Shown: piece by piece, positions 1,934 to 41,026 of the stretch
Position numbering within the stretch: the first letter of the stretch is position 1
How the letters are laid out: each line of letters starts with the position of its first letter
DNA from: a virus
Length of the DNA: 42,449 nucleotides
IMG/VR virus record: IMGVR_UViG_3300045988_091463
Span: 1-42,449 of that record
Direction: 5' to 3' (one strand)
Translations under genes and position numbers: made by a program
Notes under the pieces: generated by a model
Told to the model about the DNA's origin: nothing
What the model saw: only the letters and a program-made list of their open reading frames with translations
Database searches by the model: none

Positions 1934-3160
1934 ATGAGCTTTTTTCAGTCGTTAGGAGATTCCAAACTCTCTTATGACGATTATGTCGCTTCGGTAGTGT
2001 CTGGCAATGATAGCGCAAAGTATGTTGGTATTTCAGCTCTTAGAAACAGCGATGTGCTGACAGCGACTTCAATTATTGCTGGTGATATTGCTAGGTTCCC
2101 TTTGATTAAGAAAAATGTTAACGGTGACATCATTCAAGACGAGGACATCAATTATCTGTTGAATGTAAAATCGACTGGCAATGCTTCGGCTCGAACGTGG
2201 AAATTTGCAATGGCAGTCAATACTATTTTGACAGGTAATGCTTATTCTCGTATTTTGAGAGACCCACGGACTGGCAAAGCGTTGCAATTTCAGTTTTATA
2301 AACCATCTGAAACTCGTGTAGAAGAATTAGATAGCCATGAACTTATCTATACTTTCGTTGACAGTTTGACAGGCAAAGAGGTTGCTTGTGGAGCTGATGA
2401 TGTCATTCATTGGAAATTCTTTAGCCATGACACAATCTTAGGGCGTTCTCCGTTGCTGTCTTTGGGTGATGAAATTAGTTTGCAAAACAGCGGAACAAGT
2501 ACGCTTTTAAAATTCTTTAAAGACGGTTTTTCAAGCGGTATTTTAAAAATGGAAGGCGCTATGTTGAGTGGTGAAGCTCGCAAAAAGGCTCGTGAAGAAT
2601 TCGAGAAAATGCGAGAAGGAGCGAAAGGTGGCAGTCCACTAGTATTCGATAAGACAATGTCCTACGAGCCACTCGAAATTGATACTAATGTCTTGCAATT
2701 GATTACAAGTAACAATTTTTCAACAGCTCAAATCGCTAAAGCCTTGCGTATACCTAGTTATAAATTGGGCGTAAACAGCCCTAATCAGTCCGTAGCGCAA
2801 CTTACAGAAGATTACGTTACAAATGACTTGCCGTTCTATTTTGACGCGATAACGAGCGAATTAGGACTTAAAATCTTTAGTCCAAGAGATAGGCGGAAAT
2901 GCCGACTTGAGTTTGACACACGTAGTGTAACAGGTCGAAATGTTGATGAGATTGTTAAACTTGTCAATAATACATTGTTGACACCAAACCAAGGACTTAT
3001 CGAGCTTGGCAAACAGCCGTCTGATAATCCAGATATGGATAGGTATCAAACAAGCCTTAATTACGTTTTCTTGGACAAGAAAGAAGAATATCAATCATTG
3101 AAAGGAGGTGAGACTAATGCCGAAACGAATTCAGATGAGGGGCCCGCTGATTCCGAATAA
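1934..3160 (+). CDS. Portal protein (HK97-family type)
   Basis: 408 aa, directly after terL. AGGAGGTG RBS. Position and size are typical of a portal. Confidence 0.88.
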   Translation: MSFFQSLGDSKLSYDDYVASVVSGNDSAKYVGISALRNSDVLTATSIIAGDIARFPLIKKNVNGDIIQDEDINYLLNVKSTGNASARTWKFAMAVNTILTGNAYSRILRDPRTGKALQFQFYKPSETRVEELDSHELIYTFVDSLTGKEVACGADDVIHWKFFSHDTILGRSPLLSLGDEISLQNSGTSTLLKFFKDGFSSGILKMEGAMLSGEARKKAREEFEKMREGAKGGSPLVFDKTMSYEPLEIDTNVLQLITSNNFSTAQIAKALRIPSYKLGVNSPNQSVAQLTEDYVTNDLPFYFDAITSELGLKIFSPRDRRKCRLEFDTRSVTGRNVDEIVKLVNNTLLTPNQGLIELGKQPSDNPDMDRYQTSLNYVFLDKKEEYQSLKGGETNAETNSDEGPADSE

Positions 3161-25249: not shown

Positions 25250-26410
25250 TTACCTAATTGCTCGCAAGAATGAATCAGTAACTTCACTTGCGACTTCGTC
25301 TTGAATGTGTGTGTATTTTTGAGTCATATAAGACGTTGAATGGCCTAACGCAGCTGCCATATGTTCAACTGGTACACCAGCGATTTGACCTTGTGTAGCG
25401 AAGAAGTGGCGCATCATGTGGGGTGAAACGTGAATACCGATTGCTTTACTGACCTTTTGAAAAACGACGCTAATGCGCGTGTACACGACTGGTTTTCCAA
25501 ATAGCCTTTTGCACTTTGAACCATCATCGATAAAAAGAAAGCTTTCCTTGTTTAGTATAATGCCAGCTTTTTTAGCGATGCGCTTGGTTTCCTCGATGGC
25601 TAAATCTAACAAAGCCGTGGTTTCCTGATCAACAAACACATATCGTTCAGATTGTTTAGTTTTCATTTTTCCGCCACTTGGACGTCCTTTTGTACGGCTT
25701 TCGTTCAAAAAGATACGATAGCGACCCTCTACTAGCTTCAATGAGCTAAATTTGATCCCCAAAACTTCGCTGACACGTAGTCCAAAATAAGTAAGTCTAA
25801 CCATCGTGTAATCATAAGTACTTAGCACCTTTTTTGCACATCTATCCCAATTTTGAAATTTTTCGACAGATAATCGTTTATCTCTCTGATTAATACTGCT
25901 GTCACCTACATAAATTTTTAGAATAGGGTTTTTATCGATGTAACCATTGACCTCCGCATCTGTAAGCATTGCTTCAAGAATGGCACTTGTTTGAACGACA
26001 GTTGTTCGTGAGTATTTTTTAAGCATTTTTGCTATAAAAACTTCATACTCTTGTCTATTAATGTCAACTAATCTAGTTTGACCATATCTTTTCTCAAAGT
26101 GTACTTTAAAGAGGTTGTTTTTGTTTCTAATCGTGTCTGGCGCCCATCGACCCGTTTTAATACGGTTCTCGCTGTATATTTCCCAATAATCGTTGACCGT
26201 CATGTTTTTCTTCGGGTCATACTCGTTATTTGCTATTTTGTTTTCGATTTCTGCAAGCGCGTGTCTAGCCTCGGCAAGTGTCTTTAAGTTGCTAGCAGTA
26301 GCTTCTTTCTTTTTGCCGTTTAATTTAAAGTTTCGGCGAACGTAGTAGCGTTTGCCTTTTTTAGTTTCATATGTATATATATTTGGATATTTTGTCTTAT
26401 TGTATTTCAT
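25250..26410 (-). CDS. int: Tyrosine integrase
   Basis: 386 aa. C-terminal HMMRHFFAT...LGHSTSYMTQKYTH contains the R-H-R-Y catalytic pattern. Confidence 0.93.
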   Translation of the reverse strand: MKYNKTKYPNIYTYETKKGKRYYVRRNFKLNGKKKEATASNLKTLAEARHALAEIENKIANNEYDPKKNMTVNDYWEIYSENRIKTGRWAPDTIRNKNNLFKVHFEKRYGQTRLVDINRQEYEVFIAKMLKKYSRTTVVQTSAILEAMLTDAEVNGYIDKNPILKIYVGDSSINQRDKRLSVEKFQNWDRCAKKVLSTYDYTMVRLTYFGLRVSEVLGIKFSSLKLVEGRYRIFLNESRTKGRPSGGKMKTKQSERYVFVDQETTALLDLAIEETKRIAKKAGIILNKESFLFIDDGSKCKRLFGKPVVYTRISVVFQKVSKAIGIHVSPHMMRHFFATQGQIAGVPVEHMAAALGHSTSYMTQKYTHIQDEVASEVTDSFLRAIR

Positions 26411-39799: not shown

Positions 39800-39936
39800 G
39801 TAAAGTTACAGTTTACAAAATAACTAAAGGAGACCATAACTATCTGATTGCTGATCCTAATGTTATGAGAGATGTAATAGTACATTTTCTTGAAGATGAA
39901 AACGTTGATAAAGTTGTGATTAGGAAAGGGGAGTAA
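39796..39936 (+). CDS. Small ORF (46 aa)
   Basis: ATGA overlap with the previous ORF. Confidence 0.45.
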   Translation: MSKVTVYKITKGDHNYLIADPNVMRDVIVHFLEDENVDKVVIRKGE

Positions 39937-40017
39937 ATGAAGTATGCAATCATAATAATCTGTATAGTTAGTGTGGCATTTGGAGCATTACTAGGATATT
40001 TTACAAACAATCGATAA
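39937..40017 (+). CDS. 26-aa hydrophobic peptide (MKYAIIIICIVSVAFGALLGYFTNNR)
   Basis: GGAAAGGGGAG RBS. The ATG abuts the preceding stop codon. Confidence 0.35.
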   Translation: MKYAIIIICIVSVAFGALLGYFTNNR

Positions 40018-40560
40018 CCCACAATGGTATCTAGCAAGGTTCGAATCCTTGCTTGGGTATAAGGCTAGGAAGAAAAATAAAAAAAGAAAGCAGGCCTATG
40101 ACGAGCACTCCCTAGTCGGTGCTCTGAGGACTCTAAATTATTCTAGATACATGGGAAATGGCTCATTACTAAGGTATTCTCTAAAGCCTTAGATTTTCCA
40201 GAAGATTTCGCGGATAGACTATTGGGAACAGTCGTTTTCGCAAAAGGCTGCGTGGGGTTCGACTCCCTGCGCGGTTGTTAAACCAGAAATTAAAAAACGG
40301 AAATAGAGGTGGTTAAAGCACTTCTTCTTACAAAAATTAGTACTGCAGGCAAGGTTTTATCTGGTTTACTTGCTAGCAAACATAGCGAAATAAAATAGAA
40401 ACGAGGTATTCCTTAAGACTATTTTCTTTAAAATCCAACGCAGTTTATCGCTAGGCTGTTATTATGTAAGGCGTCACTTTCGTTATCAATAATTCAATAT
40501 TTGGGTCGTGCGCCTGCCTAAGAAAAAAAGTCCTGCTTACGCAAGACTTCATCAATATTA
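40018..40560 (+). ncRNA. Candidate large structured RNA region containing two tRNA-like T-arm/acceptor minihelices
   Basis: No ORF above about 30 codons on either strand. T-arms CAAGG-TTCGAAT-CCTTG (40035-51) and TGGGG-TTCGACT-CCCTG (40253-69). Several local and long-range helices. Confidence 0.4.
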
Positions 40561-40600
40561 AACAATTACTTATATTATAACATATCGAAGGAGAAAAGAC

Positions 40601-41026
40601 GTGAGCAGGATTAAAACTAAAGCAGATTATATTTTAGAAGAACTTAGATTAATTCCTAAAACGATTAAGCAATTAAAATTAGACATCGAGAACACCAGAA
40701 GCTCACTGTTCACGTCGCCGCAATGGTCTGACATGAAAGTGAGCGGAGGTGTTAGACGTACACAGACAGATAAGAATGTTTCAATCATTGACGCATCTGA
40801 TTACGGGCTGGCAGAGATTGACCGTTTAGTCAAACGGCGTGAAGAAATCATTGACGTCATTATGCAAATACCCGACAGTGCACAGCGTCATGTGCTGCTG
40901 ACTACTTATCTCAATTGTCAAACGTTTGACGAAGCTATTGACAAACTCGAACTTAATCGCAACAAGTATTACACAATTAAAGCAAAAGCTGTAAAAAGCC
41001 TGAACGTTATACTAAATCAATACTAA
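40601..41026 (+). CDS. ArpU/RinA-type late transcriptional activator
   Basis: 141 aa with a GTG start after GAAGGAG. The position just upstream of HNH/terS and the C-terminal sigma-region-4-like segment (..YLNCQTFDEAIDKLELNRNKYYTIKAKAVKSL) fit this family. Confidence 0.75.
   Translation: MSRIKTKADYILEELRLIPKTIKQLKLDIENTRSSLFTSPQWSDMKVSGGVRRTQTDKNVSIIDASDYGLAEIDRLVKRREEIIDVIMQIPDSAQRHVLLTTYLNCQTFDEAIDKLELNRNKYYTIKAKAVKSLNVILNQY

Follow-up and report, generated by a model that had tools for sequence, protein, structure and literature searches.

Tandem pseudoknotted RNA units headed by tRNA-like minihelices precede the late-activator gene of streptococcal phages

What occupies the 583 nucleotides (nt) that separate the last early gene from the late-activator gene, ltrB, in a phage genome that is otherwise tightly packed? 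The genome is IMG/VR record IMGVR_UViG_3300045988_091463, from a Streptococcus bovis/equinus-group siphophage, analyzed as one stretch of 42,449 nt (hereafter, the window), and the block in question runs from 40018 to 40600. An initial annotation, made from the letters alone, had described this block as free of open reading frames (ORFs) and as carrying two tRNA-like T-arm/acceptor elements, and had suggested a large structured RNA, perhaps of the GOLLD or ROOL class. Comparison with relatives establishes the structure of this RNA, its strand, its modularity, its tRNA-like anatomy and its linkage to ltrB, together with a convergent promoter–terminator pair, and gives good support to a structured-RNA family of streptococcal phages that is absent from Rfam 15. 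The block encodes a phage-borne ornate RNA associated with tRNA-type elements, and architecturally it consists of pseudoknotted units set in tandem, not of a single large fold closed over a long range (Table 1).

The longest ORFs in the block encode 47 (40049–40192, from a TTG start), 34 and 29 amino acids (aa), and none is conserved. Relative to homologues, internal insertions and deletions (indels) are rarely multiples of three: the core alignment has 104 that are versus 776 that are not, and for unit 1 the figures are 2 versus 90. The description of the block as ORF-free was essentially right, if understated, and coding potential is rejected. Homologous noncoding stretches were found by BLAST 5′ of the same gene in prophages of Streptococcus equinus, S. 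gallolyticus, S. pasteurianus, S. infantarius, S. macedonicus and S. ruminicola. With the activator protein as query, 34 loci were retrieved from viral contigs; a conserved DNA pattern taken from mid-block retrieved 80 (four of them false), and the two sets combined represent 69 distinct units. In 64 of the 69, a TATTATAnCA box and the ltrB start lie 178–290 nt 3′ of the unit; one of the other five has the box at 808 nt, and four have no box in the available sequence. When the pattern was run against one genome per species, most matches were chance hits in AT-rich genomes, and among the 80 of 97 matches listed those that look genuine come from S. equinus, S. gallolyticus, S. infantarius and S. 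vicugnae only.

We evaluated 11 helices (three pseudoknots), set by hand, against slid and shuffled controls in an alignment of 50 sequences of <95% identity, which were picked by a sequence pattern outside the tested helices and blind to pairing. These helices are paired in 86.8% of cells versus 38–43% for slid controls, with 39 pairs (14–22 in slid controls) and 418 cells (27–89) altered on both sides. The covariation score of 0.299 compares with 0.05–0.075 for slid controls and 0.140 for shuffles, with none of 500 shuffles as high. Covariation at this level bears out the proposal to the extent that the block holds RNA-level structure and is not spacer DNA. RNAalifold, applied to a MAFFT alignment, retained two helices only; the T-stem and pseudoknot 2 (PK2) were recovered across independent runs. 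The strand of the RNA is given by the balance of G·U and A·C oppositions. Read on the plus strand, the acceptor stem of the minihelices described below has 32 G·U versus 2 A·C and the T-stem 24 versus 0 (56 versus 2 for the whole minihelix), while hairpin A has 34 versus 7, hairpin C 58 versus 0 and helix E 16 versus 4. Since G·U exceeds A·C in every tested helix except hairpin F, the RNA is the plus strand; hairpin F (40527–50) shows the reverse, with 5 G·U versus 62 A·C and 39 C·A at one further pair, oppositions that turn into G·U when read on the minus strand, and is thus a hairpin of that strand. RNAalifold energies do not separate the two strands (−74.6 versus −77.8).

A scan for T-loops reveals that the first T-arm/acceptor element picked out by the initial annotation is one copy of a repeated module. 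In 5′ to 3′ order, this consists of a 7-nt strand, a linker (mostly 10–11 nt) that reads AnGGUAyyrG, a 5-bp T-stem closed by a UUCRANU loop, a second 7-nt strand, a discriminator A and then U, with no CCA. Related loci totaling 937 kb contain 188 instances of this pattern versus 14 in shuffles, and both of its stems vary between copies yet remain paired, as in ACCCAC/GUGGGU, GACCACA/UGUGGUC, AUCUGUG/CACAGAU and GUCCGC/GCGGAC. A minihelix covariance model (CM R1) built from 41 copies, the window copy among them, scores 40017–40061 at 56.6 bits (E = 1e-12, as a seed member) and its near-identical relatives at 57–62 bits, and at E < 1e-3 it detects 118 further matches among related loci, every one of known orientation being on the strand of ltrB. 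Across 87 distinct copies, 93.7% of cells are paired (31–47% in slid controls), compensatory change affects 12 of 12 pairs with 315 cells altered on both sides, and the covariation score is 0.866 versus 0.06–0.18. In the same copies the T-loop positions U, U, C, R, A, N and U are canonical in 85–87 cases (86, 85, 87, 87 and 87 for the first five and 86 for the last) above a G-C closing pair. The linker GG, which occupies the place of the D-loop, is present in 76–78 copies; the discriminator is A in 73 and G in 13; and 3′ of it every one of the 87 has U. Most copies have an A·C mismatch at position 7:66, so that the acceptor stem is effectively 6 bp, and the first acceptor pair is usually A-U. 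With an acceptor stem set on a 5-bp T-stem, a UUCRANY loop, a discriminator and a CCA-less trailer like that of host genes, the minihelices, both of whose stems covary, are genuine mimics of the tRNA top half that copy the coaxial acceptor/T-arm half of host tRNA. They are not full cloverleaves, as just 11 nt separate the 5′ acceptor strand from the T-stem in the window.

Minihelix 1 of the window contains the T-arm CAAGG/TTCGAAT/CCTTG and the 11-nt spacer in place of the D and anticodon arms exactly as first read. The CTTGGGT strand does face ACCCACA, and pairing holds at five of the seven positions only: relatives have G at 40053 and six acceptor pairs, and the change of G40053 to U in the window copy leaves five. 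The second T-arm, TGGGG/TTCGACT/CCCTG at 40253–69, is likewise present and extends through GCG/CGC into a continuous hairpin, which we regard as a linker-less variant (minihelix 2); its G·U-rich pairing works on the plus strand only, and one relative (L098) has a linker-type minihelix at this position. Each phage carries one to five minihelices, which stand directly after the stop codon of the last early ORF and at the 5′ edge of each extra unit; in the window, the final A of the stop codon of the ORF at 39937–40017 is base 1 of minihelix 1. The minihelices are thus acceptor/T-arm mimics inside a longer predicted transcript, at unit and gene borders, an arrangement that resembles the t-elements discussed below. 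Internal minihelices that have no ORF ahead of them (those of L018, L043, L055, L056, L067 and others) are directly preceded by a conserved UCAUUCGGU motif.

The units share a common plan, each having a hairpin whose loop is paired to a single strand that lies 60–80 nt upstream. In unit 1, the 6-bp hairpin at 40103–24 noted at the outset is present and covaries at five of six pairs over 28 distinct homologues, while the pairing of its loop with the upstream tail is maintained in 87.6% with little covariation; the stem is probably extended by CCUA (40095–98) with U-AGG (40125–29). A long-range helix, TAAGGCT 40060–66 with AGCCTTA 40185–91, had been drawn around this hairpin. The complementarity exists in the window and is not kept by relatives, which instead support pairing of GGCTAGGAA (40063–71) with the loop at 40109–17 and a local CTAAGG/CCTTAG hairpin, at whose site (40169–40192) CUUCGAG...CUCGAAG substitutes in relatives; AGCCUUAG therefore partners locally with CUAAGG, not over a long range. 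At the start of unit 2, a GG-loop hairpin is capped by a conserved loop, AUUGGGAAC, whose GG gives it the look of a D-loop, and comparison by eye shows stem variants GACU/AGUC, UACU/AGUA and GGCU/AGUC around an invariant loop. The covarying GACT 40217–20/AGTC 40230–33 helix and the 12-bp minihelix clash with both a 5+4-bp hairpin at 40229–50 and a CGCGG/TCGCG pairing proposed earlier, and these two are discarded. Further 3′, the haplotypes of pseudoknot 1 (PK1) covary (UAACCCGA/UCGGGUUA, ACCCAG/CUGGGU, UAAACCAGA/UCUGGUUUA and UAACCCAA/UUGGGUUA), as do the stems of hairpin E2 (GGGU/GCCC, GCAGU/ACUGC, GUGCU/AGCAC and GACA/UGUC), which is part of pseudoknot 3 (PK3). PK2, the pseudoknot also recovered by RNAalifold, has at least seven haplotypes, those of S. 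pyogenes and S. agalactiae phages included.

Modularity is also apparent in Javan227, where a single minihelix is directly followed by the homologue of window 40256–40608; by this comparison the window holds an extra module of ~200 nt between its two T-arm elements, and the 48-bp minihelix is the stretch best conserved between the two. As a separate observation, the A/B unit (40279–40377) and the C/D unit (40383–40459) look like an internal duplication: both have a 5′ strand ending in GAAAU, then UAGA..GAGG, a small hairpin and a second hairpin whose loop begins UUAUC and pairs back to the 5′ strand.

Does this RNA belong to a catalogued family, as had been suggested? Rfam 15 was run at the gathering score over the window and 24 related loci, and in E-value mode over 39850–40700 and an S. 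pyogenes locus. The whole window has no match at the gathering score, and at E ≤ 10 the interval 39850–40700 gives four meaningless matches, none of them relevant; the tRNA model (RF00005) has no match there even at this threshold. The model of the conserved 3′ domain of GOLLD (RF02032) finds nothing in the window at either setting, whereas the same scan recovers GOLLD in other loci (L027, 265.9 bits; L032, 254.6 bits). No match to the ROOL model was found in the window or the 24 loci, and none to the Y-RNA-like (YrlA) and tmRNA models in the window by Rfam or ARAGORN. ARAGORN reports no tRNA or tmRNA in the window and no tRNA genes in any of the bovis/equinus-group loci. Assignment to GOLLD, ROOL, Y-RNA-like RNAs, tRNA or tmRNA thus fails by these tools, the scan of the S. 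pyogenes locus included. The contextual hunch behind it was apt, as true GOLLD with tRNAs adjoins the homologous activator gene in more distant streptococcal phages. The literature searched describes no tRNA-like or minihelix phage RNA of matching type, and two further candidates, the pseudoknot repeats of type III toxin–antitoxin systems and anti-CRISPR tRNA-fragment complexes, were dropped for want of short tandem repeats, a linked toxin or similarity.

The gene 3′ of the block had been labeled an ArpU-like activator, which is incorrect: its 141-aa product matches Pfam PF07374 (DUF1492) with E = 4.7e-16 and 59.2 bits against a curated cut-off of 21.5, and it is followed by an HNH endonuclease gene and then terS (Terminase_4), as expected of the LtrB family. 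Members of this family (DUF1492) are late activators, and terS promoters have been shown to be activated by them (PMC3753634). On the plus strand, promoter prediction and a terminator scan were both empty in and just upstream of the block; most likely, then, the block is transcribed as the end of one long early transcript and doubles as the ltrB 5′ leader.

The minus strand tells a different story. TATTATAnCA is the sole invariant block of the region, found in 50 of 50 aligned sequences, 40–47 nt upstream of hairpin F on the minus strand, where it reads TGnTATAAT, mostly TRTGnTATAAT, which at the sequence level is an extended −10 promoter box. Among loci L001–L041 and L219–L221, all 31 distinct ltrB loci have TGnTATAAT on the opposite strand just ahead of the activator gene, including those without the large RNA, and a hairpin with a T-run follows 40–47 nt downstream in 29, the scan having halted at an earlier T-run in the other two. 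The hairpin by the A-run at 40521–52 had rightly been read as a minus-strand terminator: 40550–40527 with its T-run scores z = −3.5 and has the form of an intrinsic terminator. This conserved convergent promoter–terminator pair predicts an antisense RNA of ~45 nt (~45–48 nt), which would be able to pair with the part of the leader that directly precedes the ribosome-binding site (RBS) of ltrB. A 42-nt prophage small RNA (sRNA), Spy_sRNA1212757, has been seen by Northern blot in S. pyogenes SF370; it is described as equipped with a promoter and a terminator of its own and as unstructured at the 5′ end, and neither a function nor a link to ltrB is proposed for it there (Le Rhun et al. 2016, PMC4829319). 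The SF370 prophages Javan488 and Javan489 both carry the antisense cassette, with a predicted RNA of 42–45 nt. In annotated relatives, “hypothetical protein” ORFs lie over the leader and the antisense cassette (gp33 at 1273–1479 of L219, phage T12, NC_028700; 645–770 of L221), and these are probably spurious gene calls.

How far does the family reach? An nhmmer profile of the PK2-to-E2 domain finds it 5′ of the homologous gene in further streptococcal loci (E of 1e-10 to 1e-18), which BLAST identifies as S. pyogenes/S. dysgalactiae prophages (phage T12, Javan493), two SF370 prophages and S. agalactiae phages. A minihelix stands ahead of this 3′ domain in Javan493 and Javan488 and an ordinary hairpin in others. 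In S. pyogenes phages including T12, the 600 nt that separate the activator gene from terS hold two more units headed by a minihelix, and S. agalactiae phages have GOLLD, tRNAs and minihelices there. At the 5′ edge of GOLLD, directly ahead of its 5′ domain, the homologous spots in two S. agalactiae-type phages (L027 3005–3095 versus L032 ~3050–3095) hold a complete tRNA-Ser in one and, in the other, the linker-less minihelix UGGGACG-U-GCAGG-UUCGAAU-CCUGU-CGUCUCA; this is a natural exchange of a tRNA for a minihelix. Two side observations concern S. pyogenes: the units in the activator–terS gap lie about where the late promoter is expected, and in S. pyogenes prophages the minihelix trailer GACCGAAAU doubles as a PK2 strand.

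What might the minihelices do? RNase P, RNase Z and the CCA-adding enzyme all accept acceptor/T-arm minihelices as substrates, and these were reportedly used as such by McClain, Guerrier-Takada and Altman in 1987. We favor, with a probability of roughly 0.5, a reading in which the minihelices serve as tRNA surrogates for RNase P and RNase Z while the leader and the antisense RNA tune the late switch. RNase P would cut on the 5′ side of the minihelices and RNase Z may cut 3′ of the discriminator; these cuts would part the units from the early mRNA and from one another, leaving the cut ends buried in stable helices, and the last domain would remain as the structured 5′ leader of the ltrB mRNA. 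The minus-strand RNA of ~45 nt, together with its convergent promoter, would then damp or time ltrB expression and hence the late switch. A role as tRNA surrogate is suggested by the exact tRNA geometry, by a CCA-less A-U junction that matches host tRNA genes, by the position of the minihelices at unit borders and by the tRNA/minihelix swap ahead of GOLLD. In Streptococcaceae all tRNA genes are CCA-less and RNase Z cuts right 3′ of the discriminator, the 3′ fragment beginning with U in a mapped example (PMC8549757), and RNase P goes first on precursors with long 5′ extensions (PMC1874595). The suggestion that RNA ends are set by RNase P/Z is plausible.

Several observations weigh against this reading. 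Every processing step is one that we infer, and PK1 engages the minihelix trailer at or next to U74, which may block RNase Z. In a bacterial tRNA, both the A1-U72 pair and the mismatch at 7:66 would be unusual. In the window itself, the acceptor stem of minihelix 1 is weakened to five of seven pairs and minihelix 2 scores only 10.7 bits (E = 2.4) with the linker-type model. The PK3/E2 element is missing in at least six relatives, and the folding energy of the single sequence beats shuffles by a modest margin only (z = −1.81) and was not used as evidence. Many S. pyogenes prophages have an ordinary hairpin ahead of the conserved 3′ domain, which therefore does not require the minihelix. Finally, Spy_sRNA1212757 is no more than a probable counterpart of the antisense unit and would correspond to minus-strand 40520–40582 only, not to the plus-strand structured RNA.

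A serious rival, and a possible one, is that the 3′ domain is purely cis-regulatory: the whole RNA, or at least 40383–40600, would be a sensor- or attenuator-like ltrB leader that sets the translation or stability of the mRNA through, for example, a protein, tRNA, metabolite or the antisense RNA, and the minihelices would be structural and uncleaved. The core unit is always immediately 5′ of ltrB, the 3′ domain precedes this gene in phages of the bovis/equinus group as well as in those of S. pyogenes and S. agalactiae, S. pyogenes versions do without the minihelix, and PK1 would stack immediately against the acceptor stem, as though a single fold included the minihelix. However, neither an alternative terminator/antiterminator nor a helix that sequesters the RBS was found on the plus strand, and the upstream units are separable and vary in number from 0 to 5. 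In the phages of S. pyogenes and S. agalactiae, minihelix units are also present between ltrB and terS, and a 7+5-bp stack with a discriminator and an invariant U would be superfluous for a mere tertiary-contact motif.

It is rather unlikely that the units act in trans, as phage noncoding RNAs that work away from ltrB in the way suspected for GOLLD and ROOL, possibly as tRNA decoys that, after CCA addition, occupy host enzymes or defense toxins recognizing the acceptor/T-arm half. Such a role fits a genomic niche that in related phages belongs to GOLLD with its tRNAs, the tRNA/minihelix exchange at the GOLLD 5′ edge, a copy number that varies as in phage tRNA arrays, and the strict retention of tRNA top-half features. 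It fits poorly with the tight linkage of the core to ltrB, which favors a local role, and with the lack of any linked defense or counter-defense gene; moreover, RNAs without an anticodon arm do not mimic substrates of anticodon nucleases, and a free 3′ end with CCA addition is purely hypothetical. A broader and possible, if tentative, extension of the tRNA-surrogate reading would treat these miniature tRNAs, top halves only, as a bacterial “tRNA punctuation,” in which RNase P/Z would free pseudoknotted RNAs (elsewhere GOLLD) from the early transcript, the freed CCA-tailed minihelices or units might act in trans, for example as decoys for enzymes or defense toxins that read the acceptor end of tRNA or as self-assembling RNA particles, and the last unit with the 45-nt antisense RNA could gate the late switch.

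Three other explanations are very improbable. Divergent membership in a known family (GOLLD, ROOL, YrlA-type Y RNA or tmRNA), or the presence of hidden small protein genes, is brought to mind by the ~0.5-kb length, phage context, tRNA-like pieces and ORFs of 47, 34 and 29 aa, and is opposed by the absence of any Rfam 15 match at the gathering score or E ≤ 10 from a scan that detects GOLLD elsewhere at 255–266 bits, by the lack of an ARAGORN tmRNA and by indels that are not multiples of three. Decayed tRNA genes in a drifting, functionless spacer would suit a junction where phages often carry tRNA genes, elements rejected by ARAGORN and the Rfam tRNA model, and a first copy with a damaged acceptor, but would not keep all 12 minihelix pairs, and 39 pairs across the whole structure, intact by compensatory change, nor retain an invariant U after the discriminator in 87 distinct copies. 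An element acting as DNA, with its hairpins relevant at that level (a replication origin, a packaging site or an attachment site derived from a tRNA 3′ half, for instance), is suggested by the fact that tRNA 3′ halves are classic phage attachment cores and by the conservation of the 48-bp minihelix in Javan227, but the integrase gene is 14 kb off (25250–26410), the HNH and terS genes, next to which a cos site is expected, lie 3′ of ltrB, an excess of 56 G·U over 2 A·C in the minihelix makes sense for RNA only, and pseudoknot covariation has no DNA rationale; attachment and cos sites are rejected on this position and strand asymmetry.

Among known systems, GOLLD and ROOL are likewise phage-borne, several hundred nt long, multiply pseudoknotted and found in Lactobacillales and the rumen (PMC12286853, PMC5737381), and they share a place at the early/late junction beside tRNA-type elements. 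The block differs in having no covariance-model match, a narrower host range and a tight tie to the ltrB start, and in being built from repeated small pseudoknot units, not a large multi-junction fold; the ROOL model is about 580 nt with six multistem junctions as well as three pseudoknots, whereas the block has tandem hairpin-loop pseudoknots. Plant mitochondrial t-elements, which are reported to set mRNA 5′ and 3′ ends through tRNA-processing enzymes (PMC1920247), are also acceptor stems on a T-arm, with no D or anticodon arms, inside longer transcripts at gene borders. The block, in contrast, is from a bacteriophage, its cleavage is conjectural, its 3′ trailer is in a pseudoknot and a GG linker replaces the D/anticodon region. 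The C4 RNA of phages P1/P7 and the CI RNA of P4 are phage regulatory RNAs matured by RNase P that control lysis and lysogeny. They are small RNAs cut from longer transcripts by a tRNA-processing enzyme, as would be the case here, but they are antisense repressors with no canonical T-loop or 7+5-bp geometry and no sequence relation to the block. YrlA-type Y RNAs and tmRNA, some of them phage-encoded, share tRNA-mimic modules with a T-arm and an acceptor-like stem; in these the molecule's own 5′ and 3′ ends close the stem, whereas the block has a local, 45-nt hairpin-like module. Late regulators of lambdoid phages are under antisense control by the paQ anti-Q RNA and the oop RNA. These too are short convergent transcripts over the region of a late or decision regulator, but they belong to another phage group and regulator family, and the RNA predicted here covers the 5′ leader, not the coding region.

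Few large structured phage RNAs are known (GOLLD, ROOL), and this family joins them; unlike them, it is small, modular and tied to the activator of packaging and lysis genes in streptococcal prophages, and its occurrence in S. pyogenes phages (such as T12 and the SF370 prophages) puts it within reach of experiment. In the minihelices, nature supplies covarying versions of the tRNA “top half” placed exactly where some relatives have real tRNAs, which offers a testable route by which GOLLD-type RNAs may be cut from phage transcripts. The invariant convergent promoter–terminator pair hints at an unrecognized antisense layer on the lysis-timing switch, whose minus-strand sRNA has probably been seen once before in S. 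pyogenes and left uninterpreted.

Table 1. Features of the block and its surroundings (window coordinates unless a locus is named)
Feature	Position	Strand	Details
Large terminase gene	window start		
Integrase gene	25250–26410	minus	
Long early gene block	ends 40017	plus	
Last early ORF	39937–40017	plus	26-aa hydrophobic peptide MKYAIIIICIVSVAFGALLGYFTNNR
Unit 1	40017–40200	plus	minihelix 1, then pseudoknotted hairpin
Minihelix 1	40017–40059	plus	covariance model, pairing tests
Acceptor 5′ strand	40017–23		minihelix 1
GG linker	40024–34		minihelix 1
T-stem	40035–39/40047–51		minihelix 1
T-loop	40040–46		UUCGAAU; minihelix 1
Acceptor 3′ strand	40052–58		minihelix 1
Discriminator	A40059		followed by U40060; minihelix 1
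Unit 1 body	40063–40129	plus	“type II” unit; 28 distinct homologues
Unit 1 tail	40063–71	plus	GGCUAGGAA, then A-rich linker
Unit 1 hairpin	40103–08/40119–24	plus	loop UCCCUAGUC (40109–17) pairs with tail, forming the pseudoknot
Local hairpin CUAAGG/CCUUAG	40169–40192	plus	40169–74 with 40187–92; also in minimum-free-energy fold
Unit 2	40205–40380	plus	GG-loop hairpin, linker-less minihelix, A/B pseudoknot
Irregular GG-loop hairpin	40210–40241	plus	GCG...GACU (40217–20)/AGUC (40230–33)...CGC
Minihelix 2, linker-less variant	40246–40277	plus	continuous 12-bp hairpin 40246–57/40265–76 with five G·U pairs
T-loop of minihelix 2	40258–64		UUCGACU; G40277 at discriminator position
A/B pseudoknot unit	40279–40377	plus	hairpin A 40305–11/40319–25; hairpin B 40345–53/40369–77
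PK1	40279–87 with 40360–68	plus	tail UAAACCAGA with UCUGGUUUA, loop of hairpin B
Conserved AAUUAGUA	40335–42	plus	in A/B unit
C/D/E double-pseudoknot domain	40383–40519	plus	widely conserved leader of late-activator gene
PK2	40383–88 with 40448–53	plus	UAGCGA with UCGCUA, loop of hairpin D (40440–44/40455–59)
Hairpin C	40403–06/40411–14	plus	invariant G·U
PK3	40469–74 with 40510–15	plus	loop of hairpin E2 (40503–06/40516–19)
Predicted antisense RNA unit	40520–40582	minus	promoter box and terminator
Extended −10 box	TG 40582–81, TATAAT 40579–74	minus	window reads TATGTTATAAT
Predicted antisense start	near 40567	minus	
Terminator hairpin	40550–40527	minus	10-bp stem, U-run 40526–40520 (TTTTTTT)
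RBS and late-activator gene (ltrB)	40588–41026	plus	RBS GAAGGAG 40588–94; GTG start 40601; 141 aa
Extra S. pyogenes minihelices	L037 3082–3127, 3342–3385; L219 2031–2076, 2292–2337		

Two relatives deserve separate mention. In Javan227 (L001), positions 910–1500 hold three small plus-strand ORFs that have no GenBank annotation, and the noncoding gap is accordingly ~377 bp, not ~965 bp. In Javan220 (L005/L020), an HNH homing-endonuclease gene (1674–2225) sits inside the RNA region between hairpins D and E2, at the equivalent of window ~40465/40491, with loss of the 5′ strand of PK3; an insertion between domains in this way indicates that the domains are separable.

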